Below, piece by piece: positions 24,654 through 46,690 of a stretch of DNA of 64,000 nucleotides; position 1 is the first letter of the stretch, and each line of letters begins with the position of its first letter. The position numbers and the translations under genes were made by a program. Origin of the DNA: Thermoanaerobaculia bacterium. GTDB lineage: Bacteria; Acidobacteriota; Thermoanaerobaculia; Gp7-AA8. Where the stretch lies: NCBI GenBank assembly GCA_036009105.1, contig DASYMJ010000009.1, forward strand, positions 1,239 through 65,238, given 5' to 3'. Below the pieces are notes generated by a model. It worked only from the letters and a program-made list of their open reading frames with translations. It was not told where the DNA came from and did no database searches.

Positions 24654-24656
24654 GCT

Positions 24657-24863: not shown

Positions 24864-24870
24864 GGCGGCG

Positions 24871-25914: not shown

Positions 25915-26037
25915 AGGAACGGCTGCGCACGCTCGCTGTCAACGGCGAATATCCCTTGTGGCTCAGCGGTTTAGAGCGTGCAAATAAGGGTGCTGGATGC
26001 CCTCCTCTTTCCTGTTAGCATCCGCACCGTCCAAATC

Positions 26038-29733: not shown

Positions 29734-32736
<3,003 letters not shown>

Positions 32737-32791: not shown

Positions 32792-33547
32792 TCACGGCAC
32801 CGTGAGGGAGTACGTCGCCAACTGCTCCTCGCGCGTGCCGTCGATGCCGTACAACACGACCTGGTGCTTGCCGGATTTGAGGAACGCGCGGGGGACGAGG
32901 ATGGCGAAGGTGTCGTCGTCGCGAAGATGCAGCGGCTCGCTCGTCCAGATCACCGCGCCGCTCTCGTTGCGGATGCGCAGCCGATAGCCGTCCATCGACT
33001 CGGAGCCCACCAGGGGGGCCACGAGCATGGTCGAGTCGGCGTTCGGCGCGAGCCTGACCGGCCGGTGCGGGCGGCCGCGCTGCCCGTCCGGCATCAGCAC
33101 GACGTATTCGGACGCCGCGCGCGGCCTGGCCAGCTCGGCCTGCAGACGGTGCGCGCTCCACCGGGCCTGCCCGAGCAGGCCGCCGATGGCGAGTACGAGC
33201 GCCGCCGCGATCGCCAGCGATGCCCGCCGCCAGAACTGCACGACGCTGCCTCCATCGCCATGAATGCTGCGGCGCAGCTCCGTCCAGCGGCGGGTCAGCT
33301 CTTCCGGCGGCAGGTGACCGTCCTCTCCCGGCGCGGCGTCCTCCTCGGGCAACGGCGCGGTCAGGGCGTGCGCGAGCTCGGGATGGAGCACCAGCAGGCG
33401 GCGCACGCGCTCTTCGTCTTCTGGCGAGAGCTCGCCGCGCGTGTAGGCGAGCATCTCTTCGACCGTCGGCGGGTCGCCGAGCGGGTGTTGCTGATCCACA
33501 TCGAGCAGCTCGTGCTGGATGGTATCCCAATCCGATTTCGTGATCAT
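32792..33547 (-). CDS. putative membrane-anchored anti-sigma factor (paralogue A)
   Basis: Internal start MITKSDWDTIQHELLD. ATGA-coupled to ECF sigma. TM LAIAAALVLAIGGLL. Paralogous to 43399..44052. Confidence 0.6.
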   Translation of the reverse strand: MITKSDWDTIQHELLDVDQQHPLGDPPTVEEMLAYTRGELSPEDEERVRRLLVLHPELAHALTAPLPEEDAAPGEDGHLPPEELTRRWTELRRSIHGDGGSVVQFWRRASLAIAAALVLAIGGLLGQARWSAHRLQAELARPRAASEYVVLMPDGQRGRPHRPVRLAPNADSTMLVAPLVGSESMDGYRLRIRNESGAVIWTSEPLHLRDDDTFAILVPRAFLKSGKHQVVLYGIDGTREEQLATYSLTVP

Positions 33548-34095
33548 CGATCGTCTCCCAGCCGCGCGCGGAGGTGTTTCTTCGCGTCTCGCAGCCGCGA
33601 CTTGACCGCGTCGACGCTGACTCGCAGCGTCTCCGCGATCTGCGTGTACTTCAATCCCTGAACCCACAGCCGCAGAACCTGCTGCTGCCCTTCCGTGAGC
33701 TCGGCCACGGCCTGCCGTACGCGGTTTCGCCGAAGCGTCTGATGCTCGCGCTCCGCATAATCGGGCTCCTCCGGCGCAGCGAGCTCGAATGCAAGATCCG
33801 GATCGTCGAGGTCGACGTGCAGCCCATTGCGCTTGCCGGTCAGCCGGGCCCGGATGCGATTGAGCAGAAGCCGGCGCGCCGTCACCTGCAGAAATGACCA
33901 GACCGCCTCGGTTTCACCCCGGAATTGCGGCATGTGCTCATAGAAACGCTTGAAGGTGTCCTGGGCGAGATCGTGCGCTTCGTCGTCCGCTACCTTGGAG
34001 GAGCGATACAGCCGCCACACCCGCGCATAATACTTTCGGTAAATCGCCTCGAACAATTCGTCGCGACTCCCGCCGCCGGCCTTCCAAATCGTCAT
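33544..34095 (-). CDS. ECF (sigma-70 family) RNA polymerase sigma factor (paralogue A)
   Basis: ORF track 183 aa. Region 2 DLAQDTFKRFY. Region 4 YTQIAETLRVSVDAVKSRL. Confidence 0.85.
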   Translation of the reverse strand: MTIWKAGGGSRDELFEAIYRKYYARVWRLYRSSKVADDEAHDLAQDTFKRFYEHMPQFRGETEAVWSFLQVTARRLLLNRIRARLTGKRNGLHVDLDDPDLAFELAAPEEPDYAEREHQTLRRNRVRQAVAELTEGQQQVLRLWVQGLKYTQIAETLRVSVDAVKSRLRDAKKHLRARLGDDR

Positions 34096-34137
34096 CGTCC
34101 GATCCTGTGCCCGCGAAACGCGTATCGTTGCTGATGC

Positions 34138-37100
34138 ATGAAGAAACTCGTCGTCATGGCCATGGCCCTGTGCAGCTTCTCAATCGGCTGCCATAGGGAA
34201 GACACGAAAGCAGCGGCGGTGTGGCGGACGGTGGAGCCGCGGCTGACGGCCGCCACGAAATGGCAACCGTGCACCCGCCCTCAATGCGGCGCCGGGCCCT
34301 CCGCATCCATTGCGAGCACCTGTACTGTCGATATCCGCACCCACGAGCAGGCCCTGTACGCCATTGCGCATCAGCCGGAATGCCTCGGATCGGCGATCGA
34401 CGTGTTGAGCCGTCTCGCGAAGCACGATCTACGCGCCCGAAGCGACCTCGCCGCGGCGTATTACGTCCGCGCGCAGGTGGAGGACCGCCCGATTTACCTG
34501 CTGATGGCCTGGGAGCAGATCAAAGACCTGCCCGGCCTGCCCGAGGCGCAATTCAATGTTGCGTTGATTCAGGAGAAGCTGGGCCGTACGGAGGATGCAA
34601 GGCGCTCCTGGGATGCATACCGTGCGCGCGACGTCTCGCCATGGGGGAATGAGGCCCGCCAGCACGGCGACCGGTTGAACGAGGAGTTGCGCCATGCGGC
34701 GTACAAGGAGTGGCCGGTCAATCGGCGCCTGTTGCGCGCGGCTCTTGCCGGCCAGGACCACGCCAGGGTAGTGAGCCTGATCCGCGCGTTTCCCACTCCG
34801 GCGCAGACGTATCTGGAGGACGAGGTCATCCCGCAATGGGCAGCCTCCGGTGCCCAAAAGGATCTGGACGCCGCAAGACTGCTGGCCGAGGCGGTGTCGG
34901 AGGTACAGCAGGACCCATTCGCCAGGGACGTCGTCGCGGCCATTACCAATGCATCCGATCGGAGCGTATTGAGGAATGCGCACAAGGCGTATGCAAGGGC
35001 GCGACGGGCGGAGCGTGGATTCGACAGAAAGAACGCGCTCGCGCGTTATGACAGAGCGGTGACGCTGCTCACCCGCGGGCATAGTCCCTTGCGGTTCAAC
35101 GCGGAGCTCGGACTGGCAGTCAATCGCTTCCTCGAGAAAAAGGGACGGCCTGAAGGTGCGCTGGAACGCCTGAAACGCGAAATTCCGTCCATTTACCCGC
35201 ACACCGCGGCACGGGTCATGGCCACCGTCGCGTTCGCGCAGAACTTCAGTGGCAATCACCTCGGGGCTCGCGAGCAGTACGAGAGGGCAACGAACGCCTA
35301 CAGGCGCCTGCACGACTACGAGTACATGACTGCAGTGCAGAGCGCCGCGTCCGGCGTCTCCCTGGAACTCGGCGACAAAGAGCGCGCCTGGCACGAAGCT
35401 TTGGAGACGAACGAGCACGCCGCGGAGATCGCCGACCCGCGCCGCCGCCATGTTCGCCTGGGGGCGCTCTCCGATGCCGCACAGGCGCTCGGGCATCCCG
35501 ATGTCGCGCTGCTCTATCAAAGCGAAGCGGTCGAAGCCATGCAGCAGGAGCTGGTCAACGAGCCCGTTCAGAACCTGGATGTGATCCAGGGACTGCAGCA
35601 TCACTTGAGCGTTGCGCTGCGGAATCGGGCCAAGGTCAGGCTTGCGCTTGACCCCGAACAGCGCGAGAAGGCCTCCGCTGATCTCAGGGACGCTTTAGGT
35701 CTGGTGGAGACCAAAGAGGACGCGGACACACAGAACAGCAGGGACCTTCGATCGAGCATCTATACGGTGGAAGGCTCGCAGCTTCTGCGCGCCGACCCGC
35801 AAGGCGCGGTCAAAGCCTTCACCAAGGCCATCGAGCTGCTGCCGGAAAACGAGCTGCCGAACCTCCGCACCTCGCTGCTCACCCGGCGCGCAAGAGCGTT
35901 CCGGCTGGCCAAACATCCGAAGGAAGCCGAAGCCGACCTGGAAGCGGCGCTTGCGGAGTTGGATCGCGAGGAAGCGATTCAGCTGGAGAACCGGCGCAGT
36001 GGAAAAGAAGAGGAGATCTGGAGCTTATTTTTTGAACGCTTTCAAGACACCTATCGGGAGCTGATCGACCTGCTCGCCGCGCGTGGCCAATACGAACAAG
36101 CGTTCGCCTATGCCGAGCGAGCGAAGGCTTTCGAGCCGCTCGATCTCATTCTTCACCTCCCCTATGCGCCGCAACGATTCCGGGAGTTGACGAAAGGCCG
36201 TGAGCCGATCGCATTGCACGAGATTCAGGCCGCTTTGCCGGCGGAGACGTACCTCCTGGAGTACTCCGTGCTGGAGGACAGGACCATCGTCTGGATCATC
36301 GGCCGGCGGTTGTCCCGTTGGATGTCGCTCCCCGTGGGCCGCAATGAAATCGCCTCGTGGCGCGCGAGAATCCAGGAGGCGGTCGAGCAATCCGACGACC
36401 ATGGTCTCAAGAGCAATCTGGCATTGGCTTACGACGGATTGTTGCAGGAGCCGTGGAAGCTGATTCCGAAAACGGCGAGCCGTGAACCGCGGATCGTGAT
36501 CATTCCGGACGGCGAGATGCGCGGGCTGCCGTTCAATGCGCTGCGACATCCCATCAGGGGCTACTTCGTCGAACACGCGATCGTCAGCGTCCACGGCAGC
36601 GCCACGCTTTATGTTTTCTCCTTGTTGCGCGACGGCGAGTTGAAGACGGGCAATGCGTCCGCGCTGCTGATCGGTGATCCGGAATTCGACGCGACCCTTC
36701 GAGAGGCCAGGGAGCTGCTCCGCCTCCGCGGTGCGCGAAACGAGGTAAACAACATCAGCCAGTTCTACGCGCCGAACGCCACGGTGAGAAAAGACAAGGA
36801 CGCCACAATTGCTGATTTCCTACAAAGAGCAGTCCATAGCGAGATCATCCACATCGCGGCGCACGGCGTGGTCGATGAGGAGCACCCTTCCAGGTCGGCA
36901 ATCCTGCTGGCCAGGACGGCCACCGACTCCGGCAGGCTCGACGCGCAGACGCTCTCCGGATTGCGCCTGAAGCTGGCGCGGCTCGTCGTGCTGGCCAGTT
37001 GCAGCAGCGCGGGCGGCGTTCCTGTAGGTCCGGAAGGAGTCGCGCCGCTGGTGCGGCCATTCATCGGCGCCGGCGTGCCGGCTGTTGTGGGCAGCCTCTG

Positions 37101-37320
37101 GGAATTCGCCGACGCCACAGCGGAACCTCTCCTCGTGTCTTTTCATCGGCACTATCGGGAACCAGGCCAGGACGCGGCAACAGCGCTGCGCGCGGCCCAA
37201 CTCGAAGCGCTCGATGAAAACAAACCCTTGCGCGCATGGGCCCCGTTCGAGGTGATCGGCTACGCATCGTCACCCGTCCCGGCTCCGGCAGCAGGCACGA
37301 AGGAGAAACGACCACCATGA
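34138..37320 (+). CDS. CHAT domain (caspase-like clan CD peptidase) TPR-repeat lipoprotein
   Basis: ORF track 1060 aa. Lipobox MKKLVVMAMALCSFSIGC. TPR-like helical repeats. C-terminal CHAT with IIHIAAHGV and LVVLASCSSAGG (His/Cys dyad). Confidence 0.8.
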   Translation: MKKLVVMAMALCSFSIGCHREDTKAAAVWRTVEPRLTAATKWQPCTRPQCGAGPSASIASTCTVDIRTHEQALYAIAHQPECLGSAIDVLSRLAKHDLRARSDLAAAYYVRAQVEDRPIYLLMAWEQIKDLPGLPEAQFNVALIQEKLGRTEDARRSWDAYRARDVSPWGNEARQHGDRLNEELRHAAYKEWPVNRRLLRAALAGQDHARVVSLIRAFPTPAQTYLEDEVIPQWAASGAQKDLDAARLLAEAVSEVQQDPFARDVVAAITNASDRSVLRNAHKAYARARRAERGFDRKNALARYDRAVTLLTRGHSPLRFNAELGLAVNRFLEKKGRPEGALERLKREIPSIYPHTAARVMATVAFAQNFSGNHLGAREQYERATNAYRRLHDYEYMTAVQSAASGVSLELGDKERAWHEALETNEHAAEIADPRRRHVRLGALSDAAQALGHPDVALLYQSEAVEAMQQELVNEPVQNLDVIQGLQHHLSVALRNRAKVRLALDPEQREKASADLRDALGLVETKEDADTQNSRDLRSSIYTVEGSQLLRADPQGAVKAFTKAIELLPENELPNLRTSLLTRRARAFRLAKHPKEAEADLEAALAELDREEAIQLENRRSGKEEEIWSLFFERFQDTYRELIDLLAARGQYEQAFAYAERAKAFEPLDLILHLPYAPQRFRELTKGREPIALHEIQAALPAETYLLEYSVLEDRTIVWIIGRRLSRWMSLPVGRNEIASWRARIQEAVEQSDDHGLKSNLALAYDGLLQEPWKLIPKTASREPRIVIIPDGEMRGLPFNALRHPIRGYFVEHAIVSVHGSATLYVFSLLRDGELKTGNASALLIGDPEFDATLREARELLRLRGARNEVNNISQFYAPNATVRKDKDATIADFLQRAVHSEIIHIAAHGVVDEEHPSRSAILLARTATDSGRLDAQTLSGLRLKLARLVVLASCSSAGGVPVGPEGVAPLVRPFIGAGVPAVVGSLWEFADATAEPLLVSFHRHYREPGQDAATALRAAQLEALDENKPLRAWAPFEVIGYASSPVPAPAAGTKEKRPP

Positions 37321-38393
37321 GCACGTTCATTTTGCGCATTCTCTTCAGCGGCTTGATCAGCTTCGTCCCCAATCAGGACGGCACCGAGCTGACGGTCCTC
37401 CTGGTCAACGTCGACCACACCTACCACACCTCCGACGGCACCCACCTCGATCACCACAAACCGCTCCTCCTCGCCCGCGGCGGCGGCTGCACCGGCACCT
37501 GTCCCACCGACGACGACGCAATCGCCCGGTTCATCTATCCCGATCAGGCGCAGTCGGCAAGACTCGATTCGCTGGCCACGGCGGTCAGCGGCGGCGGCGC
37601 GTGGCTCCTCGACAACTCCAAGCTCACCCTGCAGAAAGGCAGCACCAACGACCCCAACCTCCCCGCCCTCAGCATCGTGCGCAATGCGCGCGGCTCGACC
37701 AACAACGTGCTGGACCTCATCCCCACCACCTCCGCCGAGCGGGAGGACTACAGCTGGGTCGCCGATCTGAAATCGATCTGCTCATCCTGCGACCTCAAAT
37801 CCGCCGTGCACGACGCCGAGCCGCCGGCCGGCCTCGTTGCCGCGCGCTTCAAGCTGCGCAACGGACGCGTCTTCACCTACTCGGTGGCGCGCATCGGCAG
37901 CGACGTCACGCCGGTGCAGTTCAAGCGCCTCAACGGCCAGGGCTCGGTCTCGCCCTACTCGCAGGCCGTCGCCACCTGGGTCGCGGCGGACATCGAGGTC
38001 AGCGGCGACAGCATCGAGATGATCGACCAGAAGTTCGACGGCAGCTCCAGCCGCTCGATGACCCTCACCCCCGATGAAAACGGCCGGGTGGAGATGGCCG
38101 TGCTGAACCTGCCGACCTTCGCGCCGCCGCCGGCCGCGCGCGTCAGCGCGCCCGGCATCGGCAAGCACTTCGAACGGTACTACGACCTCGTCGACACGCC
38201 GCCCTCGAGCGGCGACCGCCTCGTCCCCTGGGCCGGCGCGGCGCCCAACACGCCGTCGTATCCGCAAGTCGCGTGGGATGACATCCACCCCACCGAAGAG
38301 CTCTGGTCGGAGCTCCTCAACCAGCTGCGGCTCAACATCGGCCGCACCACCTACGACCGGACCATCTGTCCGCCCTTCAACGGCACCCCGTAA
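37317..38393 (+). CDS. hypothetical protein (358 aa) within caspase operon
   Basis: Start MSTFILRILFSGLISFV with SD AAGGAGAAACG. ATGA overlap with CHAT gene stop. Confidence 0.55.
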   Translation: MSTFILRILFSGLISFVPNQDGTELTVLLVNVDHTYHTSDGTHLDHHKPLLLARGGGCTGTCPTDDDAIARFIYPDQAQSARLDSLATAVSGGGAWLLDNSKLTLQKGSTNDPNLPALSIVRNARGSTNNVLDLIPTTSAEREDYSWVADLKSICSSCDLKSAVHDAEPPAGLVAARFKLRNGRVFTYSVARIGSDVTPVQFKRLNGQGSVSPYSQAVATWVAADIEVSGDSIEMIDQKFDGSSSRSMTLTPDENGRVEMAVLNLPTFAPPPAARVSAPGIGKHFERYYDLVDTPPSSGDRLVPWAGAAPNTPSYPQVAWDDIHPTEELWSELLNQLRLNIGRTTYDRTICPPFNGTP

Positions 38394-38453
38394 CTCCTTC
38401 GACGGTCCGCCGCACCCCGCGGCGGGCCGTCCCTTCCGCTGGAGATCACGACG

Positions 38454-38888
38454 ATGAGAACGAACTTCTTCCTGGTGATGCTCGTCGCCTGCGCGGCTCT
38501 GACCAGCTGTACGAGCGATGCCGCCCCCGCGACCACCATCCCTCCTCGCATGGCCAAGAATCATGGCCGGAGCGATCGCATCCGCGCCGCAGCCGCATTC
38601 ACCAGCCGCTACGCGAGCTCGCCCTTCGCCGGTTGGAAAGTGCGTGCCGAGGCGGCCGGGCCGCTTTGCAATGTGCTGGTCATCCGGACGCCGATCGTCA
38701 TGGAAGGCGCGATGGTCGATGCGATGCATCACGGCGATGGCGAATACGAGATCGACGACGGCGGCGTGCAGCGTTTCTATCTGGAAGAGACGTTCCGCGG
38801 CGTCGCCTACCGCGACGGCTCCGACCGCATCTGGACTTACGGCGCGGTGAAGGAGGCGGAAGTCGAGGAGCTCGAGCCATGTCACTGA
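38454..38888 (+). CDS. hypothetical lipoprotein (144 aa)
   Basis: ORF track. Lipobox LVACAALTSC. Confidence 0.5.
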   Translation: MRTNFFLVMLVACAALTSCTSDAAPATTIPPRMAKNHGRSDRIRAAAAFTSRYASSPFAGWKVRAEAAGPLCNVLVIRTPIVMEGAMVDAMHHGDGEYEIDDGGVQRFYLEETFRGVAYRDGSDRIWTYGAVKEAEVEELEPCH

Positions 38889-41029
38889 TGGCTCGTCTCA
38901 CCATGGTTCTCGCGCTGCTGGCGTTCGCGCTTGATGTCGATGCGCAGGTGCATCGGCGCGCGCTGCTGATCGGCATCAACGACTACAGCGCCTCGCGCTT
39001 CACCGCCCGCCCCCCAACCGACCGCGATTGGCCGAACCTCGGCGGCGCCGTGCGCGATGCCGGCATCCTGCGGGAGCTGCTCGTCCTGCTCTACGGCTTC
39101 GAGGAGCGAGACATCGTCACGCTCAGCGATCAGGCCGCGACGCGCGAGGCCATCCTGCAATCGACCGAGGAGCAGCTCGTCCGCGGCGCGGCGAAGGACG
39201 ACGTGGTCTTTTTCTACTTCGCCGGCCACGGCTCGCAGGTGGCGAACTCGCTCTCCGCGGAGCCGGATCAGCTCGACGAGTCGATCGTACCGGCCGACTC
39301 GCGAGCCGGCGCGCCGGACATCCGCGACAAGGAGCTGCGCGCGCTCTTCAACCAAATCCTCGACCGCGGCGCGCGGCTGACGGTGATGCTGGACAGCTGC
39401 CATAGCGGCTCCGGCGCACGCGGCCTGGCGACGGGCGCGCATCCACGCGGCGTGCGGCCTGATCTGCGCGACATCCGCGATGGCGCCGAGGCCGGTCCGC
39501 GTCCGGAAGATCGCGGCGCACTGGTGCTGACCGCGACGCGGGACGACGGCATCGCGCTCGAGACGCGCGACGCGGATGGGCTGCACGGCGCTTTCTCGCT
39601 CGCCTGGATCAAGGCCATGCGCGACGCGGCGCCGGGCGAGCCGGCGAGCGAGACGTTCCTCCGCGCGCAGGCGCGGATGCGCGCCGGGATGCCGTTCCAG
39701 GAGCCGGTGATGGCCGGCGACGCCGCGGCGCGAGCCCGCCCCTTCCTCGGCACACGCATCGATCGGAGCGGCGGCCGCAATGCGGTCGGCGTGGAGCGCG
39801 TGCTGAAAGACGGGACGGTGCTGCTGCAGGGAGGGTGGGCGAACGGTCTCGCCGTGGGGGCCCAGCTCCGCGCCGCGAACGGCACGCGGTTGACCGTGAC
39901 CACCATGCTCGGCCTCGGCCGCAGCGAAGCTCGCGTCGAGGCGGGGCCGGCCGCCATGCAACCCGGCTCGCTGCTGGAAGTGGTCGGCTGGGCCGCCCCT
40001 CCCGGCCGCCCCCTGCGTGTTCATGTGCCGAAGGCGCCGCACGTGGCTGCTCTCGCCTCCCGGCTGTTCGCCGCCGCGAACCAACGCGGCATCCGCTGGA
40101 TCGACGATCCCTCCGAAAGCACGCCGACCCATCAGCTCCGCCTCGGCGCCGGCGGCTGGGAGCTCATCAGCCCGGACGGGGATGCGCAACGTTTCGGCGC
40201 CGAGGAGGCGGTGGAGCACGTCCCTGCCGGCTCGTCGCTGTTCGTTCAACTGCCCGCGCCCGCGGCCATCGACATCGCGTCGACGGCGAGCGCCGAAGAG
40301 GCGGACTACATCCTGGTGGGGCGTTACGTGAAGCAGCGGCTCGAATACGCCTGGGTGCGGCCGGGAGTGCGCAAGCGCGACCAACGCGGCAGCGGCCTGC
40401 CGGTGCGCTCGGACTGGATCCGCAACGGCCGCGAAACGGCCGCCATCCTTCGCGACACGCTCCTCCGCCTGCGCCGCATCCACGCCTGGCAACATCTGCA
40501 GTCGCCGCCCGAGTCGCGCTCGCCGTACCGGCTGGCCTTGCGCGGTGCGCGCAGCGGTGAGCTCGTGCAGGACGGCGTCGTCATCGGCGGCCAGTCATAC
40601 CGGCCGGTGCTGCGGCCGCCGGCGACCGCCACCGATATCCAGCCGCGCTTCTTCTACGTCTTCATCGTCGACCGGCACGGCAAGAGCTATCTCGCCTTCC
40701 CCGGCGGTGCGGTGGAGAACCGCTTCCCTCTCGGCGCGCCTGCGAAAGAGGTCGCGCTCGACCGGTTCCGGGTGCTGCCCCCCTTCGGAGTCGACACGTA
40801 CTTTCTACTGTCCACGGACGAGCCGCTCCCCAACCCCTGGATCCTGGAGTGGGACGGCGTCCGTGCGCGGTGCCCGCGGGCTCCCACCGCGCTCGAACAG
40901 ATGCTCATGCTCACCGCGTCCGGCGAGCGGGCCGGGAGGGGGGTGACGCCGGTCGGCTGGTCGCTGGAGCGCGTGGTGTACCAGTCGGTTCCACCTCCGG
41001 TGAAACGGAAACCGAAGAAACGCCACTAA
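38879..41029 (+). CDS. caspase-family (peptidase C14) secreted protein with ~500-aa C-terminal extension
   Basis: Start MSLMARLTMVLALLAFALDVDAQ (alternative ATG at 38888, which is ATGA-coupled). ALLIGINDY...FYFAGHG...DSCHSG caspase His/Cys dyad. Confidence 0.8.
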   Translation: MSLMARLTMVLALLAFALDVDAQVHRRALLIGINDYSASRFTARPPTDRDWPNLGGAVRDAGILRELLVLLYGFEERDIVTLSDQAATREAILQSTEEQLVRGAAKDDVVFFYFAGHGSQVANSLSAEPDQLDESIVPADSRAGAPDIRDKELRALFNQILDRGARLTVMLDSCHSGSGARGLATGAHPRGVRPDLRDIRDGAEAGPRPEDRGALVLTATRDDGIALETRDADGLHGAFSLAWIKAMRDAAPGEPASETFLRAQARMRAGMPFQEPVMAGDAAARARPFLGTRIDRSGGRNAVGVERVLKDGTVLLQGGWANGLAVGAQLRAANGTRLTVTTMLGLGRSEARVEAGPAAMQPGSLLEVVGWAAPPGRPLRVHVPKAPHVAALASRLFAAANQRGIRWIDDPSESTPTHQLRLGAGGWELISPDGDAQRFGAEEAVEHVPAGSSLFVQLPAPAAIDIASTASAEEADYILVGRYVKQRLEYAWVRPGVRKRDQRGSGLPVRSDWIRNGRETAAILRDTLLRLRRIHAWQHLQSPPESRSPYRLALRGARSGELVQDGVVIGGQSYRPVLRPPATATDIQPRFFYVFIVDRHGKSYLAFPGGAVENRFPLGAPAKEVALDRFRVLPPFGVDTYFLLSTDEPLPNPWILEWDGVRARCPRAPTALEQMLMLTASGERAGRGVTPVGWSLERVVYQSVPPPVKRKPKKRH

Positions 41030-41067
41030 TGCACGGGTCCCGTGTCCTGAGAGAGAGGGTACCGCCC

Positions 41068-42810
41068 ATGAATGCTCGGAAGCTGCTGGTCGTCTTCGTT
41101 CTGACGCTCCTGCTCACGCCACCGGCCTGTGATCACACTCGCTCCGCGGGGCCCGCGGACGAGGAGAGTGCGGATGGGGCGGGCCTCTTCGATCGCACCC
41201 GATCGGCCGGCCTGTTCGTCGGCATCAACCGTTTCGACGACAAGACCATCGCGCGCGTCGACTATGCGGTGGATGACGCGGTCGATCTCGCCTGGAACTT
41301 CTCGCTCAATCCGCGGATCAACCTCATCGCCCCCACACGCATCGTGCTCGCCCTCTCCGGATCGGCGAATAAGAAGGAGTCGAAGGAACGGCTCGCCGAT
41401 CTGAAACGCGCCGGCGCCGTGGTCAGCCGCGCCACGCGCGATGACATCGCGGCGCTGCTCCAGCAACAGGCAGCGGCCGCCGGCAAGCAGGGAGTCTTCA
41501 TCGCGGCCTTCGCCACGCACGGCTACAGCGAAGAAGGCGTCCCCTACGTCCTGGCCTCGTCCTCCATTTACGGGGTTCCGGCGACGGCGCTCTCCGCGGC
41601 GAAGGTCTTCGAGATCGCATCCGATGCGGGCGCGCAGCGCTCGCTGATCTTTGTCGACGCCTGCCGGGAGCGTTTGAAAGCCTCGGCGCGTTCCGGCGAG
41701 GCCGATCCGGATGCCGCCGCGGCATTGCTCGCCGCGATGAACCCGGTGGAGGGGCAGGCGGTCTTTTTCGCGGCCGCGGCAGGTAAATACGCCTACGACG
41801 ACAGCGTGCGGAAGAACGGCGTCTTCTCCGCGGCGGTGCTCGACGGCCTGCGGTGCGGCGCGGCCACCGATGCGCGCGGCTTCGTCACCGTCGATACGCT
41901 TTCCACCTTCGTGGAGCAACGCGTCCACAGCTGGCTGGTGGCCCATCGCCGCGGCAGCAGCGGCAGCGCGACGCAGACGAACATGGATGGCGGTACGAGG
42001 GACATGCCGCTCGCGCAGTGCAGGGCGCCGCAATCGAACATCGCCAGCCTGGTCAGCGTACCGCCTGCCCGCAATCCCGATCACTTCGCCATCGACGGCA
42101 CTTCGATCGAGGTACTCGGCAAAGACGGGACGTCGCTCTGGAAGCACGAGGTGGCAGGTCGCATTGCCCGCGTCGAAGTGGTCGACCTGGACGCGGATGG
42201 CTTGAACGAAGTCGTCGTGAACGTCGGCCGAATCATCGTTTTCCATCCCTCCGGCGAGGAGTGGTGGCGCTCTCCCACCGACCCACGGCTGGCGGTGACC
42301 GCGTTCAGCACCGCGAATCTCTTCCGCAACCAGAAGCAGGAGATCATCGCCATCTACGCAGCCGATGACGGCTCGGCCGGCTCGCGCCTCACCATCTTCC
42401 AGCCCGATGGGAAAAACCGTGGCGACTATCCGTATGCCGGCCGCCTCCAGTCCATCGCAACCGGGAAGGAGACTTCCCATCACTGGCCCAGGCTGGTGGT
42501 TTACGGCACGGACGACAGTCTGGACGAGCAGCTCGACGTCGCCGGTCCGCTCGGAAATGTGTTCATGCTGAATCCGAACAAGCTTGCCAAGCCGCTCTGG
42601 TCCGTGGCAGTCCTTCCCCAAACGCAACGGATCGCAAGCGTGAAGTTGATCGATTACGACAATGACACCCATCAGGACATCTCCATCACCATGGCGGATG
42701 GATCGATGGTCTACCTCGACTTCGCCGGCGAATTCCTCTCCGGCGACAGCAGCGCCCGATTCGTGCGGATGAAAAAGGAAGTCAGCAGGCAGGCCACCAT
42801 TCGGCGATGA
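41068..42810 (+). CDS. caspase-family lipoprotein with C-terminal FG-GAP/beta-propeller-like repeats
   Basis: Start MNARKLLVVFVLTLLLTPPAC (lipobox) with SD GAGAGAGGG. LFVGINRF...AFATHG...FVDACRE dyad. VDLDADGLNEVVV and IDYDNDTHQDISI repeats. Confidence 0.8.
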   Translation: MNARKLLVVFVLTLLLTPPACDHTRSAGPADEESADGAGLFDRTRSAGLFVGINRFDDKTIARVDYAVDDAVDLAWNFSLNPRINLIAPTRIVLALSGSANKKESKERLADLKRAGAVVSRATRDDIAALLQQQAAAAGKQGVFIAAFATHGYSEEGVPYVLASSSIYGVPATALSAAKVFEIASDAGAQRSLIFVDACRERLKASARSGEADPDAAAALLAAMNPVEGQAVFFAAAAGKYAYDDSVRKNGVFSAAVLDGLRCGAATDARGFVTVDTLSTFVEQRVHSWLVAHRRGSSGSATQTNMDGGTRDMPLAQCRAPQSNIASLVSVPPARNPDHFAIDGTSIEVLGKDGTSLWKHEVAGRIARVEVVDLDADGLNEVVVNVGRIIVFHPSGEEWWRSPTDPRLAVTAFSTANLFRNQKQEIIAIYAADDGSAGSRLTIFQPDGKNRGDYPYAGRLQSIATGKETSHHWPRLVVYGTDDSLDEQLDVAGPLGNVFMLNPNKLAKPLWSVAVLPQTQRIASVKLIDYDNDTHQDISITMADGSMVYLDFAGEFLSGDSSARFVRMKKEVSRQATIRR

Positions 42811-43421
42811 TCGTGTCGGTATTGGCGCAGATGACCGCACCGATCGATTCATCGCGGCATGACGAACTGGTCCGCCGCTACCGCGAAGCCATCGTCCGCC
42901 ATCTCATGCGGCAATTCCGGTTTCCGCGCGAGGACGCGGAGGACATCGCGCAGGAGACGTTCCTCAGCGTGTATAAAAGCATGGACCGGTACCGCGGCGA
43001 ATCGGAATGGATATACCTGAGAACGGCCGCGCACAACTTCGCGAAGAACTGGTTCCGGCACAGGCAGACGCAGATGCGGAACGAGGCACTGAATACGCCC
43101 ATTGACGTCATGCCCGATCAGGGTGATGGCAAGTCATCCATCGAGGACGAGCTCGTACGCAAAGAGCAGAAGAAGCGCTTCAACACGAGCTACCGCGACG
43201 CGCTGGCGAAGCTGCCCGAGCTCACCCGCAACTGCGTCCTCCTGCTGCTGCGCGACACCAGCTACAAGGACATCGCCACCATCACGAAGCTGACCATCGA
43301 CGCGGTACGCTCGCGCCTGCGGGACGCGAGGAAGCGGCTGCGCAACGAAGCCGGCGCGGCGGCGGAGGGGCTCAACTGGCCGGAGGTGGCCGAAGAGGAT
43401 GACGATGAGCACGAGAACTGA
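42807..43421 (+). CDS. ECF sigma factor (paralogue B), ATGA-coupled to caspase gene
   Basis: ORF track 204 aa. DIAQETFLSVY region 2. YKDIATITKLTIDAVRSRL region 4. Confidence 0.8.
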   Translation: MIVSVLAQMTAPIDSSRHDELVRRYREAIVRHLMRQFRFPREDAEDIAQETFLSVYKSMDRYRGESEWIYLRTAAHNFAKNWFRHRQTQMRNEALNTPIDVMPDQGDGKSSIEDELVRKEQKKRFNTSYRDALAKLPELTRNCVLLLLRDTSYKDIATITKLTIDAVRSRLRDARKRLRNEAGAAAEGLNWPEVAEEDDDEHEN

Positions 43422-44052
43422 TTGGGAAGCCGCGGCCGAGGACTTCATGGCCGCCGAACGCGGGCGCCTCGGCGGACCGCCGACGCCGGAAGAAGTCGTC
43501 GCCTACGCGCGCGGCGAGCTGTCGGAGGCCGATGCGTCGCGCGTGCGCTCGCTGCTCGTCTGCTATCCCGAGCTGACCTCGGTGCTCACCGAGCCGCCGC
43601 CGCGATTCGCCGCGCGCCGGCGCATCACCTCGACGCGGCTGTTCGCGCTGGCCGCGAGTGTGCTGCTCATCATCAGCGCCGGCCTCGGCATCCAGCTGCG
43701 GCGCCAGAGTCAGGAGTTGAACACGCCGCACGTGATGTCGGTTCACGACCTGACGCCGAGCCTGCTCACGCGCGGCCCGCGGCAGCCGCCGAACCGTCTG
43801 GTCGCGGACGAGAAGAATTCGGTGCTCGTATTCAACTACCTGCCGGAAGCGCCTCGCTATCGCATCGAGCTGCTGGAGGGAGCGCAGAGCCTGTGGACGG
43901 CAAGGGTTGCCAACAAGAACGGCGAGCCCATCCAGCTGTCCCTGCGGCGCGGCCTGGCGCCGGGCAACTATCGCGTCGATGTCTACGGAGCGGACGACTC
44001 GACGCCGCTGGCCACCTACGAGCTCCGCGTCAGCGAACCACCGCAGGAATGA
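43399..44052 (+). CDS. putative anti-sigma factor (paralogue B)
   Basis: ORF track 217 aa. Conserved with 32792..33547: TPEEVVAYARGELSEADASRVRSLLVCYPEL versus TVEEMLAYTRGELSPEDEERVRRLLVLHPEL. TM LFALAASVLLIISAGLGI. Confidence 0.6.
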   Translation: MTMSTRTDWEAAAEDFMAAERGRLGGPPTPEEVVAYARGELSEADASRVRSLLVCYPELTSVLTEPPPRFAARRRITSTRLFALAASVLLIISAGLGIQLRRQSQELNTPHVMSVHDLTPSLLTRGPRQPPNRLVADEKNSVLVFNYLPEAPRYRIELLEGAQSLWTARVANKNGEPIQLSLRRGLAPGNYRVDVYGADDSTPLATYELRVSEPPQE

Positions 44053-44185: not shown

Positions 44186-46687
44186 TCACAGGAAGGTCTC
44201 CTCGGGGTTGGACGCGATCGGCTTGGCGGGCAGCAGATCGGGAGCGGCCGCGGACTCCGCATGGCGCGAGGGGTCGTACTGCGAGCGGTAGTAGTCGAGC
44301 TGCCCGAGGATGTAGGCCGGGTAGTGCAGGACCCGGGTGAAGACCTGGATGCGCAGCGGATCGGCGGCGGGTTCCCGGTGCGCATCGGGAAAGCGGCGTT
44401 GCAGTTGCGCGGCGAACGCGGCGTCGGACGGGTCAGCCCAGAGCGTCGCGTCGCGCTGCATGGCGAGCTGCGCCTCCGGGTCGTCGTCGCGCAGGTCGAC
44501 CAGCGGCGCGCTGTGATCAGCGAGCCGCTTGAGGCGCTGCCCGGCGTCCCCGCTGAGCTGCGCCGCATGGGCGATGGTCAATTTGCGGAAGGGATCGATG
44601 GCGCGCGCGGCGAAAGCGGTCACGCGCTGCCTCAGCTCCTCGAGGGAGAGGCGCAGTGATTGCGAACGGCTCACGCACGTCTCGAAGAATTCGCGGAACA
44701 GCGGCTTGCGATCCTCCGAGGTGCGCTCGAACCAGCGGTCGACGTCCGCATCGTCGAGGATGGCGATGGACAGATGGTCGGATTGGATGGAGGGCGGCGC
44801 GAGCGACAACGCGAACTGCTCCAGCTCGACCGTGCGCGCGCGCAGCGCGTCGAGCATCTGCTTCGCGGCGTTGCGAGTGTCGTGCAGCACGCGCAGCGTG
44901 GCGCGGCGATGCGCCATGTCGCACTCGAACTGCAGCTCTTCCTGATGCGCGGTGTTCTTCGCCCGGTCGGTCAGCTCGATCTGGACGCGGATGCGCTCCA
45001 GCTCCTCGCGGGCGAGGCGGATGGGCGGCGCGATGTCGCGCACGTAGCGCACGGCGGAGTAGAGCGCGAAGAGGCCGAGAGCCATCGCGGCGGTCCAGTG
45101 GATGCGCTCCAGGTTCGGGCCCAGGACGCCGAACGCGAACGGCACCCCGTAGACCGCCGCAAAGCCGAACGCGGCCCACAGAATGGTGCGCCAGAGAAAT
45201 GCACGCCTCGCTTCCAGAGCCTCGCGCAGCGCCTGCTCCGCGCGCGGCCGGCGCGCGAAGAGCTCGCGCAGCCGCTGCTCCGCCGCCTCCGTCTCCCCCG
45301 CCAGCCGTGCCGCTTCGGCATCGCGCGCCGCGTGACGCGCCGTGTTGTTCGCCGTCTCCTCCGCGAACAACAGTTCGGGCAGGCGGCGCGCGAGCTCGTC
45401 GCGCTCCTCCTCCAGCGCCGCCAGTTGCTCCGGCGCGCTCTGCGCATCGAGCACGCCTGCGATCGGCTTCTGCTCGACGACGAGGTGGTCCAGCTCGCGG
45501 GCGCGTTTGCGGCCGGCGTCGCTCGCGGCGGTGTTCGGCGTGAAGCGCAGCCGCGCATCGAGCGCCGCCGTGGCGGCGTTGATCTCGGTGACCAGATTGC
45601 GCGGCGCGACATCCGTTTCGGCGTGCAAGTCCGGCAGCGGATCGACCAGCGCTTCGACCAGGCGGATCGCGGCCGCGTAGCCGTCGCGATCGAGCGATTC
45701 GTTCACCGTGCGGCCGAGCAGCGTGGCGAACTCGGTAGTGGTCTGCTCGCTCTGCGCGTGCAGCGTTTGCAGGTTCTGCGCATGGGTCGTATCGCGATGC
45801 ACCATCAGCTCGTGACGCACCGCGGCGATCACCTCCTCCGCCGTGCGGGTGTGCTCCGTCACCCGCGTCCTGGCCTGGAAGCGCTGGAACAGCGAGCGGC
45901 CGGCGTCGAGCCCGATGCGCGAGAGCGGCAGGGCGAAGGCCTCGCCAACGACGAACTGCCTCGCCGCCAGTTGCGGCTGCGGTGCCGCACCGGCGGCCAG
46001 CAACTTGCCGCGCACGAGCTCGGACGCGAAGCGCGTCTCCAGGCGCTGCGCGGCCACGTCGCGCGGGAAGAAGAGCTCCGCGCAGCCGAAGGAGCTGAAC
46101 GTCGGATCCATCCCGCGGGGACGCCGCCCTGCCGGCGCGCCGCTCATCTCCGGCTCCAGCAATACCGCGCCGGCAACGGCCTGCGCGTATGCGTCCTGCG
46201 ATTGCTCGAGATGGCCGAAGCGGACGCGGCTCGCGTTCATCGCGTCGAGAAGCCAGAACACGTCGAACGGCCGGGGCCGCGCGGCGCTGGCCAGCTTCAG
46301 CAGCGAATAGGCGGCGCCGTAGTCGGCCCCGGCGAAGAGATCGGGAAGCAGGCAGAGGATCTCGACGGTGAAGTAGGCCGCCAGGCGCCGCATGTCGTAG
46401 AGCTCACGCACCTGCCGCGCAACCTCGAGCACCTTCCCGCTGGTGGCGGACGTCACGAGCAGCACCAGCTCGCGCGTCTTGATGTCGTCCCGCGCGCGCA
46501 ACGGACTGTCCGGCGCCTGCCGACGCGCATGCACCGAAGCCACCGCCTCGGCGAGCGGCTCGCTGAAGATGGCGCGCATCTGCACCAGATCGTCGAGGCC
46601 GCACGCGGCGGCGACGCGCTGCTGCACGGCGGCGGCAAGCGACGCCGCCGCCTGGTCGAGAGCAAGGATGGTGACCGGCTTGAGCAT
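44186..46687 (-). CDS. large coiled-coil membrane protein whose N-terminal domain is a degenerate (GTP-motif-less) paralogue of the adjacent tubulin-like GTPase
   Basis: ORF track 833 aa. VTILALDQAAASL / LVLLVTSATSGK / PFDVFWLLDAMN align to VVIGLGGTGHGAL / VYIVGSVAGGTGSG / PFDLIYLLDNIN of 46691..49423. Two TM helices, LWRTILWAAFGFAAVYGVPFAFGVLG and WTAAMALGLFALYSAV. Confidence 0.6.
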   Translation of the reverse strand: MLKPVTILALDQAAASLAAAVQQRVAAACGLDDLVQMRAIFSEPLAEAVASVHARRQAPDSPLRARDDIKTRELVLLVTSATSGKVLEVARQVRELYDMRRLAAYFTVEILCLLPDLFAGADYGAAYSLLKLASAARPRPFDVFWLLDAMNASRVRFGHLEQSQDAYAQAVAGAVLLEPEMSGAPAGRRPRGMDPTFSSFGCAELFFPRDVAAQRLETRFASELVRGKLLAAGAAPQPQLAARQFVVGEAFALPLSRIGLDAGRSLFQRFQARTRVTEHTRTAEEVIAAVRHELMVHRDTTHAQNLQTLHAQSEQTTTEFATLLGRTVNESLDRDGYAAAIRLVEALVDPLPDLHAETDVAPRNLVTEINAATAALDARLRFTPNTAASDAGRKRARELDHLVVEQKPIAGVLDAQSAPEQLAALEEERDELARRLPELLFAEETANNTARHAARDAEAARLAGETEAAEQRLRELFARRPRAEQALREALEARRAFLWRTILWAAFGFAAVYGVPFAFGVLGPNLERIHWTAAMALGLFALYSAVRYVRDIAPPIRLAREELERIRVQIELTDRAKNTAHQEELQFECDMAHRRATLRVLHDTRNAAKQMLDALRARTVELEQFALSLAPPSIQSDHLSIAILDDADVDRWFERTSEDRKPLFREFFETCVSRSQSLRLSLEELRQRVTAFAARAIDPFRKLTIAHAAQLSGDAGQRLKRLADHSAPLVDLRDDDPEAQLAMQRDATLWADPSDAAFAAQLQRRFPDAHREPAADPLRIQVFTRVLHYPAYILGQLDYYRSQYDPSRHAESAAAPDLLPAKPIASNPEETFL

Positions 46688-46690
46688 GGC

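Follow-up and report, generated by a model that had tools for sequence, protein, structure and literature searches.

Exported CHAT and caspase homologues encoded with ECF sigma factors in Thermoanaerobaculia: a likely split-gene relative of the DdvS/DdvA system

A conserved cluster of exported peptidase homologues and ECF sigma factors

In a Thermoanaerobaculia bacterium (GCA_036009105.1, contig DASYMJ010000009.1), nine clustered genes specify three exported clan-CD peptidase homologues, two further proteins, unk358 and lipo144, and two pairs of ECF sigma and anti-sigma-like factors. The window, that is the whole stretch of DNA analysed, comprises 64,000 nt, and the cluster was studied from position 32792 to 44052. 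One of its products is a TPR-CHAT lipoprotein whose homology to the periplasmic domain of DdvA, an anti-sigma factor of M. xanthus, is evident in structure and sequence alike and covers the full length. The cluster is explained best, and with moderate confidence, as a split-gene relative of Myxococcus DdvS/DdvA envelope signalling, in which CHAT or a caspase would cleave an anti-sigma factor.

All nine genes were confirmed as ORFs, and the calls agree with independent ones on two JGI metagenome contigs bearing the same DNA. ATGA overlaps occur at three junctions, CHAT/unk358, ECF-A/anti-sigma A and casp2/ECF-B, the last of which had been noted in a first-pass annotation. The genes for lipo144 and casp1 overlap by 10 nt, and those for ECF-A and ECF-B overlap their downstream anti-sigma genes by 4 and 23 nt, respectively. 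Pfam HMMs matched CHAT, Peptidase_C14 and Sigma70_r2/r4, the domains put forward for confirmation in that annotation, above threshold, and the catalytic dyads of the peptidase homologues are invariant on alignment of homologues. The points at which the annotation might have failed were also checked: dyads are present, genes are co-conserved, and signal peptides are conserved.

Conservation was surveyed in loci from about 50 Thermoanaerobaculia species-level genomes (MAGs). The core consists of anti-sigma and ECF sigma genes divergent from genes for the TPR-CHAT protein, unk358, a small lipoprotein (31/48 loci) and a secreted caspase. It was found complete in 43 of 46 testable loci, which bears out the earlier description: exported clan-CD peptidases are encoded at a locus that is co-conserved and coupled to sigma genes. 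ECF-A is divergent from CHAT in 54/54 loci, and an anti-sigma gene adjoins CHAT in 54/54 testable loci. The casp1 gene lies 3' of CHAT in 42/48 loci or within the ECF/anti-sigma operon in 6/54; one or the other arrangement applies in 45/46. The module is often present in two to three paralogous copies per genome.

The TPR-CHAT lipoprotein and its relation to DdvA

In the TPR-CHAT protein (1060 aa, 34138..37320, plus strand), a lipoprotein signal (…FSIGC) and a Cys-rich segment at the N-terminus are combined with an alpha-solenoid/TPR scaffold and the CHAT protease domain. The Pfam match to CHAT (PF12770) is strong (E 8e-54, 183.4 bits versus a cut-off of 24), and the His/Cys dyad, H909/C955, is invariant in 35 aligned sequences. 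Lipoproteins were called by a pattern test only, [LVI..][ASTVI][GAS]C at the end of the signal peptide. FSIGC fits this pattern, and with it the original designation as a TPR-CHAT lipoprotein holds. Among CHAT-family N-termini, second paralogues included, 32/87 fit, and Cys is the majority consensus at this position.

An AF2 model of the protein (pLDDT 90) was compared with 350,542 PDB chains using Foldseek. The top two matches were DdvA 8RW5/8ROT (E 6e-20 to 1e-19; TM 0.56-0.68 over about 1065 columns), and Csx29 and separase reached clearly lower TM values. Profile A3 matched DdvA 8ROT with E 6.5e-32, covering both scaffold (DdvA 89-696) and CHAT (DdvA 832-978). The similarity extends to the linker, where a conserved R-T-V-E-P-R-L motif aligns with R109-TLEARV of the flexible TM-TPR linker of DdvA. 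The positionally fixed form E-[PAGS]-R-[LFV] is present past the membrane anchor in 39/73 CHATs versus 0.06 expected per protein, at precursor residues 23-44, about 15-25 residues beyond the anchor. Between scaffold and catalytic His, the CHAT region exceeds that of DdvA by about 55 residues, and three extra helices (735-774) were modelled there by AF2. The DdvA CHAT active site is incomplete, with three helices missing, and is completed in the dimer; judged from the model, the extra stretch may be the counterpart of these helices. CHAT proteins evolve fast, with about 40% identity between loci.

A periplasmic TPR-CHAT protein coupled to an ECF sigma factor is already known from M. xanthus DdvA/DdvS (PMC6061681, PMC11506125), and DdvA is the closest structural relative in the PDB. 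An exported, sigma-coupled arrangement is thus less unusual than the first-pass annotation had it. The published ddv operon encodes an ECF sigma factor, an anti-sigma/TPR-CHAT protein, an uncharacterised protein and a clan-CD peptidase. DdvS/DdvA signalling involves RseP-dependent intramembrane proteolysis of the anti-sigma and sigma autoregulation from GTAA-n16-CGT promoters; autoproteolysis by DdvA CHAT is still a hypothesis. Both systems combine an extracytoplasmic TPR-CHAT protein carrying a His/Cys dyad with a single-pass anti-sigma factor and an ECF sigma factor that has only sigma2 and sigma4 and whose gene lies with that of the anti-sigma. They also share an ExR-type motif conserved in the membrane-proximal linker, and an operon that contains an uncharacterised protein and a clan-CD peptidase as well. 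Fused ZAS-TM-TPR-CHAT relatives were also detected (P0018, P0019, L081). P0018 and P0019 share 27% identity with the window CHAT over 95-97% of its length, and a divergent sigma gene precedes each; a significant unk358-like gene follows P0018 and a weaker candidate P0019. Because of the DdvA homology, the fused relatives and the same operon parts, the cluster is regarded as a split-gene variant of the DdvS/DdvA kind.

There are differences as well. In the window, the anti-sigma and the TPR-CHAT protein are encoded separately, one on each strand, and CHAT has its own lipoprotein signal. The anti-sigma lacks the ZAS zinc ligands and has a periplasmic domain of its own. The clan-CD partner is a C14 caspase, in ddv a C25 peptidase; no CBASS/CRISPR genes are near the cluster; and the organism belongs to the Acidobacteriota (Thermoanaerobaculia), DdvA to the Myxococcota. 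This takes DdvA-type signalling far outside Myxococcota/Comamonas, the range given in the DdvA paper, and exported caspases are added to a module multiplied across a class of soil Acidobacteria.

Two sigma/anti-sigma pairs and a conserved intergenic element

Both ECF-A (183 aa, 33544..34095, minus strand) and ECF-B (204 aa, 42807..43421, plus strand) matched Sigma70_r2 and r4_2 above the Pfam threshold, and ECF-A matched TIGR02937 (E 4e-21). The sigma factors are 35% identical to each other (E 1e-20), and anti-sigma A (251 aa, 32792..33547, minus strand) and anti-sigma B (217 aa, 43399..44052, plus strand) are 30% identical (E 3e-19). The anti-sigma motifs quoted earlier are common to both proteins, and the proposed paralogy of the two pairs is thereby corroborated, as is the divergent orientation of pair A on the minus strand (32792-34095).

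Anti-sigma A combines an anti-sigma-like helix motif at the N-terminus with a single TM helix and a beta-rich periplasmic domain at the C-terminus, and shows a juxtamembrane L-x-x-P-R and an LxPDGxRG motif; anti-sigma B is without its 40-residue cytoplasmic insert. L-x-x-P-[RHQ] is located 7-18 residues past the TM helix in 41/61 anti-sigmas and within 40 residues in 47/61. The zinc ligands H-x3-C-x2-C are absent from the window anti-sigmas (...RVRRLLVLHPELAHAL / ...RVRSLLVCYPELTSVL), which also gave no Pfam match to zf-HC2; sequence searches with anti-sigma A against Pfam and the PDB found no match. NCBIfam anti-sigma models matched weakly (E 0.002-0.008), far below their cut-offs. The proteins are designated anti-sigma-like on the basis of gene position, the AYxRGEL...RVRxLL...PEL motif and single-TM topology.

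The downstream ECF/anti-sigma pair was present in only 2/41 related loci. B-type anti-sigmas adjoin casp2-like genes at several loci (L003, L031, L042, L128/129, L136, L139, L142), resulting in a pairing of A-type anti-sigmas with CHAT and B-type with casp2. 'Dual ECF control' of a single protease trio, as suggested before, is not borne out by these distributions. Since the B pair is rare and travels with casp2, the window contains two adjacent sub-modules.

The region between ECF-A and CHAT comprises only 42 bp (34096-34137) and contains a conserved non-coding element (34111..34129, no strand assigned), which reads CCGCGAAnCGCGTATC(T/G)T(A/T) and holds an A/T-rich hexamer (TATCTT / TAAGAT) and a CGCG-N3-CGCG palindrome. 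It recurs, near-invariant and at a constant distance from the start codon of CHAT, in about 30 loci, the CHATs of which are only about 40% identical. A search of this spacer for canonical sigma-70 or ECF promoters, GTAA-n16-CGT included, led to no assignment; the ECF -35/-10 motif looked for upstream of 34138 on the suggestion of the first-pass annotation was not found.

Proposed mode of sigma release

For the split-gene relative of DdvS/DdvA, the following mechanism is proposed. The TPR scaffold would sense an envelope signal and switch on the CHAT protease, which, directly or via an activated caspase, would clip the membrane-proximal periplasmic segment of the anti-sigma factor (site-1). An intramembrane site-2 protease would then remove the anti-sigma stub, and the freed sigma factor would transcribe both the operon it belongs to and the divergent one for the proteases. 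The exported caspases would be downstream effectors, or would perform site-1 cleavage of the B-type anti-sigma that belongs to them. Sigma release via CHAT or caspase is inferred. The missing DdvA ZAS motif, the anti-sigma models matched below cut-off, the short spacer and the lack of an assigned ECF-type promoter speak against this mechanism. Among ECF systems that use a periplasmic TPR-CHAT protein, only that of DdvA has been characterised, and the key question there is whether CHAT is the site-1 protease freeing sigma. Protease and anti-sigma are separate proteins here, and the question can therefore be addressed in trans.

Alternatively, the ECF pair could be an ordinary sensor of envelope stress or of a cue, working via the periplasmic domain of its anti-sigma, and the exported proteases its effectors, acting in surface or extracellular processing, antagonism or nutrition, CHAT having no part in sigma release. 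We regard this as possible but rather unlikely. The conserved periplasmic beta-rich domain of the anti-sigma is folded in its own right and could consequently sense signals without CHAT. Among more distant relatives, CHAT and unk358 genes are also found without any ECF pair (2/19), and the protease pair must therefore have a sigma-independent function. The two to three paralogous copies per genome with fast-evolving CHATs, as in substrate-specific loci, and the large C-terminal, possibly binding, domains of the caspases would suit effectors, too. However, the full length of CHAT is homologous to DdvA, where the same domain is part of the anti-sigma, and fused relatives exist. Each of the two anti-sigma subtypes is associated with a peptidase of its own, and transporter or TonB-type genes are absent from the conserved block. 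Moreover, characterised TPR-CHAT/separase-type enzymes cut specific sites and do not carry out bulk degradation (PMC11506125).

The preferred mechanism resembles the regulated intramembrane proteolysis known for the ECF anti-sigmas RseA (by DegS and RseP), RsiV and RsiW, in which the anti-sigma likewise spans the membrane once, with a TM helix between a cytoplasmic part that binds sigma and a periplasmic domain. As with RseA/DegS/RseP, the neighbourhood includes a gene for a dedicated extracytoplasmic protease, a candidate site-1 enzyme, but the candidates in the window would be clan-CD cysteine peptidases (CHAT/C14) instead of serine proteases or signal peptidase. The block contains no gene for a site-2 protease. 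Craspase (type III-E Cas7-11 and Csx29, Csx30/Csx31, ECF-type sigma; PMC10028731) resembles the window protein in its TPR-CHAT fold, with Foldseek E values of about 1e-12 to 1e-14, and there, too, the fold is functionally linked to the freeing of an ECF-type sigma through proteolysis of the protein that binds it. In contrast, Craspase is RNA-guided, cytoplasmic and monomeric on Cas7-11, and is structurally much more distant from the window CHAT (TMq 0.27-0.40 versus 0.56-0.59 for DdvA). In the type III-B SAVED-CHAT/PCaspase/PCc-sigma system of Haliangium ochraceum, CHAT activates a caspase that acts on sigma-related proteins (10.1101/2023.06.23.546230), a precedent for a proteolytic cascade from CHAT via caspase to sigma. 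There, too, CHAT protease, C14 caspase and sigma factor are encoded together. That system is cytoplasmic, triggered by cA3 via SAVED and CRISPR/CBASS-linked, whereas the window proteases carry export signals, the sigma factor is held by a membrane anti-sigma, and no SAVED, CARF or Cas domains were found in the nine window proteins.

The caspase homologues

The two caspase genes are casp1, for a secreted Peptidase_C14 homologue (716 aa, 38879..41029, plus strand), and casp2, for a membrane-anchored or exported one (580 aa, 41068..42810, plus strand). Both exceeded the Pfam gathering cut-off of 21.4 bits, with 71.0 bits (E 1.6e-19) for casp1 and 33.9 bits (E 3.4e-8) for casp2. They are only distantly related, by hhalign in the p20 region only (E 1e-7). 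The casp1 dyad, FYFAGHG / DSCHSG, already recognised as C14 in the initial annotation, is invariant in 44 homologues, and that of casp2, FATHG / DACR, in 27. In casp1, an SPI-type signal is combined with a p20-like domain, and the C-terminal part, about 450 aa, is conserved. The C-terminus of casp2 is beta-propeller-like, but the FG-GAP-like repeats attributed to it stayed sub-threshold (22.6-24.5 bits versus a cut-off of 26.9; FG-GAP_3 24.5). Its designation as a lipoprotein is also uncertain: 'TPPAC' does not fit the canonical lipobox pattern and represents a signal or anchor. Export signals had been claimed for all three peptidase homologues; they are conserved in homologues and thus no artefacts of start choice. 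Bacterial caspase and CHAT proteins are accordingly not only cytoplasmic death effectors. A CHAT gene shares its locus with casp2 in 26/44 independently anchored metagenome loci.

An anti-phage or programmed-death function, by which the module, comparable to the DdvS regulon or the SAVED-CHAT/PCaspase cascade, would belong to an envelope-triggered defence island that kills or arrests the cell, appears improbable. A CBASS/CRISPR island is under the control of DdvS/DdvA, which also makes cells resistant to phage, CHAT-to-caspase cascades give abortive phenotypes, casp1 matches the PADLOC 'caspase' model (E 4e-23), and the multi-copy, diversifying pattern fits defence. Yet the block contains no CBASS, CRISPR, SAVED, nuclease or other known defence model, PADLOC reporting only generic caspase/CHAT/HTH, and the flanking genes code for SMC, an SNF2 helicase and vWA/tubulin-like proteins. 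Structural comparison of unk358 with a viral library gave no match, and the proteases, being exported, cannot reach cytoplasmic targets. The lack of linked defence genes weakens the ddv parallel, too.

unk358 and the small lipoprotein

The gene for unk358 (358 aa, 37317..38393, plus strand) belongs to a conserved family of 626 clusters at 50% identity and accompanies CHAT in 56/58 loci. No other component is as conserved or as tightly tied to CHAT, a point that the first-pass annotation had missed; the most constant companion of these proteases has so far been overlooked. Invariant residues include H47, C58, C62, H284, E286, H324 and C351, and C155 and C158 are nearly invariant. A confident predicted model matched no solved fold in the PDB. 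No signal peptide was found in unk358; the protein is probably not exported but cytoplasmic. It would then occupy another compartment than CHAT, which the proposed mechanism leaves unexplained.

A bolder proposal, which we put forward tentatively and consider rather doubtful, is that TPR-CHAT and unk358 form an ancient two-component unit operating with or without sigma. Here unk358 would be substrate, activator or cytoplasmic output of DdvA-type proteases, and the module a cascade from CHAT via caspase to anti-sigma. If true, this three-tier cascade would be a periplasmic analogue of initiator and executioner caspases read out by ECF sigmas, the same partner protein should operate in the Myxococcus ddv system, and the split of protease and anti-sigma would offer the first in-trans test of CHAT as site-1 protease.

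The small lipoprotein lipo144 (144 aa, 38454..38888, plus strand) carries the lipobox LTSC and two conserved Cys residues; 29/39 homologues fit the lipobox pattern. It matched no model in Pfam or NCBIfam.

The neighbouring vWA/Tubulin_2 operon

Downstream, an operon on the minus strand (44186..50823) encodes a vWA protein (467 aa; VWA E 8e-14), a Tubulin_2 protein (910 aa; E 7.5e-63, both Pfam) and an 833-aa protein. It recurs as a neighbour and is a candidate member of the system. Together with this FtsZl1-type operon, the proteases might act on parts of an apparatus for membrane remodelling or vesicles, with the ECF pair reporting its state; such envelope remodelling seems highly unlikely. 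Most module copies are without this neighbour, the adjacency may reflect conserved chromosomal order in one clade, and no domain-level link joins both gene sets. Nevertheless, vWA/FtsZl1 operons have been predicted to act in membrane remodelling (PMC2875224). One or more of the three genes adjoin the module in 23/79 metagenome loci anchored on casp2, casp1 is followed by the 833-aa gene in four genome loci, and the operon occurs in varied positions, often between casp1 and casp2. In the window, the cluster is flanked by this operon and by genes for SMC and an SNF2 helicase.

Organisation of the gene block

Nine intact genes are located between positions 32792 and 44052, in a window with a G+C content of about 68% whose DNA is also present on two JGI soil-metagenome contigs. 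The genes for anti-sigma A (32792-33547, 251 aa) and ECF sigma A (33544-34095, 183 aa) are on the minus strand. All others are on the plus strand: the TPR-CHAT gene (34138-37320, 1060 aa), unk358 for a conserved protein (37317-38393, 358 aa), lipo144 for a small lipoprotein (38454-38888, 144 aa), casp1 (38879-41029, 716 aa) and casp2 (41068-42810, 580 aa) for exported caspase homologues, ECF sigma B (42807-43421, 204 aa) and anti-sigma B (43399-44052, 217 aa). ATGA overlaps at CHAT/unk358, casp2/ECF sigma B and ECF sigma A/anti-sigma A, together with a 10-nt overlap between lipo144 and casp1, indicate tight coupling.

The domain assignments of the first-pass annotation were confirmed by Pfam matches to CHAT (E 8e-54), to Peptidase_C14 in casp1 (E 1.6e-19) and casp2 (E 3.4e-8), and to Sigma70_r2/r4_2 in both sigma factors. 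Searches for a named NCBIfam or ECF group gave only superfamily-level matches, to the sigmas. That the two regulatory pairs are paralogous was also borne out, with 35% identity between the sigmas (E 1e-20) and 30% between the anti-sigmas (E 3e-19). The two caspases are related only in the p20 region, and for the FG-GAP-like repeats suggested for casp2 the match is below threshold. With hhalign, no mutual homology was detected among lipo144, unk358, the periplasmic domain of the anti-sigma and the C-terminal regions of the caspases. Within the window, no further copies of the module families were found outside the block.

The catalytic dyads are conserved throughout. H909/C955 of CHAT is invariant in 17 full-length homologues as well as in an enlarged set of 35 sequences, and so are the His of AGHG/ATHG and the Cys of DxCHSG/DACR in 44 casp1-type and 27 casp2-type proteins. 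The predicted signal peptides are not artefacts of start choice, as homologues in dozens of genomes also have hydrophobic N-termini. CHAT homologues begin with a K/R-rich n-region followed by the lipobox Cys, and the mature CHAT protein of the window would comprise residues about 19-1060; a lipobox pattern is present in 29 of 39 lipo144 homologues and an SPI-type signal in 46 of 56 casp1 homologues. For casp2, described before as a lipoprotein, the hydrophobic N-terminus recurs (25 of 28 homologues), but its 'TPPAC' is not a canonical lipobox. The predicted periplasmic location of the CHAT N-terminal region and of lipo144 fits the conserved cysteines found in both.

Conservation of the module

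A scan of GTDB with the CHAT alignment, using one genome per species, yielded 214 relatives. The best 80 all belong to Acidobacteriota, almost all of them to MAGs of Thermoanaerobaculia; two to three loci per genome were found in at least 12 genomes, a paralogous expansion across the lineage that is new. Synteny was determined by tblastn and family HMMs for the 60 loci nearest in sequence, in which CHAT is at least 31% identical; each count covers only loci with sufficient flanking DNA. The CHAT gene is strictly coupled to an ECF sigma gene and a gene for a single-pass protein of anti-sigma topology: a divergent ECF gene and an anti-sigma gene were each detected in 54/54 loci. Directly downstream of CHAT, unk358 is present in 56/58, and lipo144 occurs in 31/48. 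The casp1 gene lies downstream in 42/48 loci, within the ECF/anti-sigma operon instead in 6/54, and in either position in 45/46; the complete core was found in 43/46. Exported C14 caspases as constant members of such a module are new. Less regular are a small minus-strand caspase (13/48), a second exported TPR-CHAT (9/41), a casp2-type plus-strand gene (6/41) and a second ECF pair downstream (2/41). In L026, L028, L030, L041, L051 and L023 the order is ECF, anti-sigma, casp1, divergent from CHAT-unk358. As third gene of this operon, casp1 provides a direct operonic tie between the anti-sigma family and a caspase.

The block had been read as one peptidase trio under dual ECF control. This reading was not sustained, given the two loci out of 41 with a second downstream pair and the association of the B-type pair with casp2. 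In an independent scan of metagenome contigs, a CHAT gene was present in 26 of 44 casp2-anchored loci with room on both sides. Where an anti-sigma gene adjoins casp2 in the same orientation, it is consistently of B-type (105-115 bits to B versus 50-57 to A); anti-sigma genes divergent from CHAT are of A-type. Two sub-modules are therefore juxtaposed in the window, the A-type pair with CHAT-unk358-lipo144-casp1, and casp2 with the B-type pair. This tie of a B-type pair to a second caspase is also new.

The second TPR-CHAT is a paralogue of about 1045 aa with a signal peptide; it is absent from the window. Its gene lies downstream of casp1, some 6-8 kb past the primary CHAT gene (L015, L017, L019, L029, L035, L036, L047, L058, L059, L074). 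A further gene of about 2 kb is located between casp1 and this paralogue.

Relationship to DdvS/DdvA

A literature search on ECF, CHAT and anti-sigma led to DdvS/DdvA of M. xanthus (PMC6061681, PMC11506125). DdvA is a single-pass anti-sigma with a periplasmic part of about 900 residues, a TPR-CHAT with His/Cys dyad (DdvA paper). The ddv operon, compared by its published description, contains the four types of component that also make up the module core. The kind of system is already known, from DdvS/DdvA and from CHAT-caspase-sigma cascades. The split architecture, a lipoprotein CHAT with a non-ZAS anti-sigma, is new. In the library searched, no paper connects ECF sigmas to CHAT or caspase proteins of Acidobacteria, and none deals with CHAT, caspase or ECF proteins of Thermoanaerobaculia; the main text of the ECF re-classification paper mentions neither CHAT nor caspases.

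The AF2 model of the CHAT protein (pLDDT 90, pTM 0.86) has the DdvA structures 8RW5 and 8ROT as its top two fold matches among 350,542 PDB chains (E 6e-20 and 1e-19), with TM scores of 0.56-0.68 over about 1065 columns; those of Csx29 and separase are clearly lower. Against PDB sequences, the broader A3 family profile matched DdvA chain 8ROT (E 6.5e-32), covering DdvA 89-696 and 832-978. The A1 profile of 17 close CHATs did not reach DdvA, indicating that the sequence link runs via intermediates. When a DdvA fragment reconstructed from the PDB alignment was used as query, the matches were short metagenomic fragments only and did not include DdvA itself.

Fused ZAS-TM-TPR-CHAT proteins are also among the relatives. 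P0018 (L085:3518-6907) and P0019 (L083:8001-11279), both preceded by a divergent sigma-like gene, are 27% identical over 95-97% of the CHAT protein, and the protein from L081 (9203-12661) is 28% identical over residues 132-1041. They derive from one Thermoanaerobaculia MAG (L081) and from Logan metagenome assemblies. DdvA-like proteins had been reported in Myxococcota and one Comamonas only (DdvA paper); judged from their sequences, the fused and split forms widen this range. In L083 the genes near the fused one include two for Pkinase proteins, one for a DUF4407 protein and one for a short CHAT protein.

The unk358 protein

Of all module genes, unk358 is conserved best, with about 60% identity where CHATs have about 40%. 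The family comprises more than 530 clusters at the 90% identity level and, at the 50% level, 626 clusters, 224 of these with E ≤ 1e-10. Nearly all homologues are stand-alone proteins of 330-390 residues; among those listed no Pfam domain was found, and every source name seen was 'hypothetical protein'. Its recognition as a universal partner, without fold match in the PDB, is new. By iterative search, unk358 also adjoins almost every one of the more distant CHATs that are membrane-anchored and lack an ECF pair, and an unk358-like gene (E 3e-19 after iteration) lies downstream of the fused P0018. From these arrangements, CHAT and unk358 are the tightest and probably also the oldest pair of the module.

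The N-terminus, M-x-F-I-L-R-I-L-F-S-G-L-I-x-F-V-P, is near-invariant and its first residues are modelled as core beta-strands (pLDDT >90); unk358 thus lacks a cleavable signal peptide. The location is apparently cytoplasmic, opposite to CHAT, and no model accounts for it. H47, C58-x3-C62, H284, E286, H324 and C351 are invariant and C155-x2-C158 nearly so, which may point to a metal site or a catalytic centre.

Intergenic regions

The ECF sigma A/CHAT spacer is only 42 bp long. In about 30 loci it contains, at a fixed distance from the CHAT start, a near-invariant element of 19 nt, CCGCGAAnCGCGTATCTTA, with an A/T-rich hexamer readable on either strand (TATCTT/TAAGAT). In the minus-strand reading, the leader of the ECF gene would be about 22 nt long and include a GGA Shine-Dalgarno. 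Neither an ECF -35/-10 pair nor the DdvS motif GTAA-n16-CGT fitted the element convincingly. Other A/T-rich boxes are present in a second subfamily of loci. Between 32600 and 44300, no sigma-70-like promoter was detected and terminators were not in excess. The 60-nt unk358/lipo144 gap (38394-38453) contains a GC-rich inverted repeat, CCGCCGC-ACCCC-GCGGCGG. The repeat lacks a T-run and might thus act as a hairpin or a site of processing in the mRNA instead of a terminator.

Membrane-proximal motifs and possible mode of action

Directly after the lipobox, CHAT proteins carry R-T-V-E-P-R-L-[ST]-G. The strict form E-[PAGS]-R-[LFV] is present at residues 23-44 in 39 of 73 proteins (0.06 expected per protein), and the motif also follows the TM helix in fused and membrane-anchored relatives. 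In the alignment with DdvA it corresponds to R109-T-L-E-A-R-V, which is part of the flexible TM-TPR linker (Q95-S143); residue numbers were verified on the published landmarks Q95, Q128, V129, P140 and H862. In anti-sigmas, L-x-x-P-[RHQ]-[AV] occurs 7-18 residues past the TM helix in 41/61 proteins and within 40 residues in 47/61, followed by a conserved L-x-P-D-G-x-R-G; in anti-sigma A, with a periplasmic part of about residues 126-251, it reads ELARPR (137-142). The CHAT and anti-sigma motifs may serve as cleavage sites, as docking elements or as structural straps. Arg-directed clan-CD cleavage close to the membrane may be hypothesised. A strap packed on the domain would also fit the CHAT motif, given its moderate confidence (about 84) in the AF2 model.

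A model in which an envelope cue leads to clipping of the anti-sigma by CHAT or caspase and to release of the sigma appears somewhat favoured. The cue would be sensed by the TPR scaffold, and CHAT and/or a CHAT-activated caspase would clip the anti-sigma close to the membrane, a step with a precedent in the cytoplasmic SAVED-CHAT, PCaspase and sigma cascade of Haliangium ochraceum (10.1101/2023.06.23.546230). A site-2 protease would complete the cleavage, and the sigma would switch on both divergent operons. For DdvA, its authors made the unproven proposal that site-1 cleavage, ahead of RseP, is a cut in trans by CHAT in the linker to the TM helix (DdvA paper); that CHAT is the site-1 protease here is less likely than the general model and, taken alone, rather unlikely.

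The strict coupling, the subtype-specific pairing of anti-sigma and peptidase and the fused relatives are consistent with clipping of the anti-sigma. CHAT-unk358 pairs without ECF genes, and the anti-sigma's own periplasmic domain, point to the main alternative, that the ECF pair does no more than control an operon for exported proteases or effectors, which is considered rather unlikely. A role in defence or cell death is improbable, as linked defence genes are absent. PADLOC gave generic matches only, and assignment to a known defence system was rejected.

Genomic neighbours

Downstream on the minus strand is a three-gene operon (44186-50823). Its products are a 467-aa vWA protein (VWA match at E 8e-14), a Tubulin_2 protein of 910 aa (E 7.5e-63) and a protein of 833 aa. 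The operon is of the vWA/FtsZ-like-1 type, for which a function in membrane remodelling has been predicted (PMC2875224). Of 79 casp2-anchored loci, 23 contain one or more of the three genes, the 833-aa gene follows casp1 in L032, L037, L050 and L052, and the operon is sometimes inserted between casp1 and casp2. This recurrent adjacency is the sole basis for a joint role with the module, which is very improbable.

On the other side, an SNF2-family helicase gene (29734-32736, plus strand) is located directly upstream of anti-sigma A; this neighbour is kept in L003, L004 and L145. By eye, its Cys/His-rich N-terminus (…SCECEFF…CKH…) looks SWIM-like. The helicase gene is preceded by an SMC gene (25978-29565, plus strand), upstream of which a HicA/HicB toxin-antitoxin pair and a beta-lactamase-family gene are encoded on the minus strand (about 24432-25914, from L001 gene calls with an offset of +24137).
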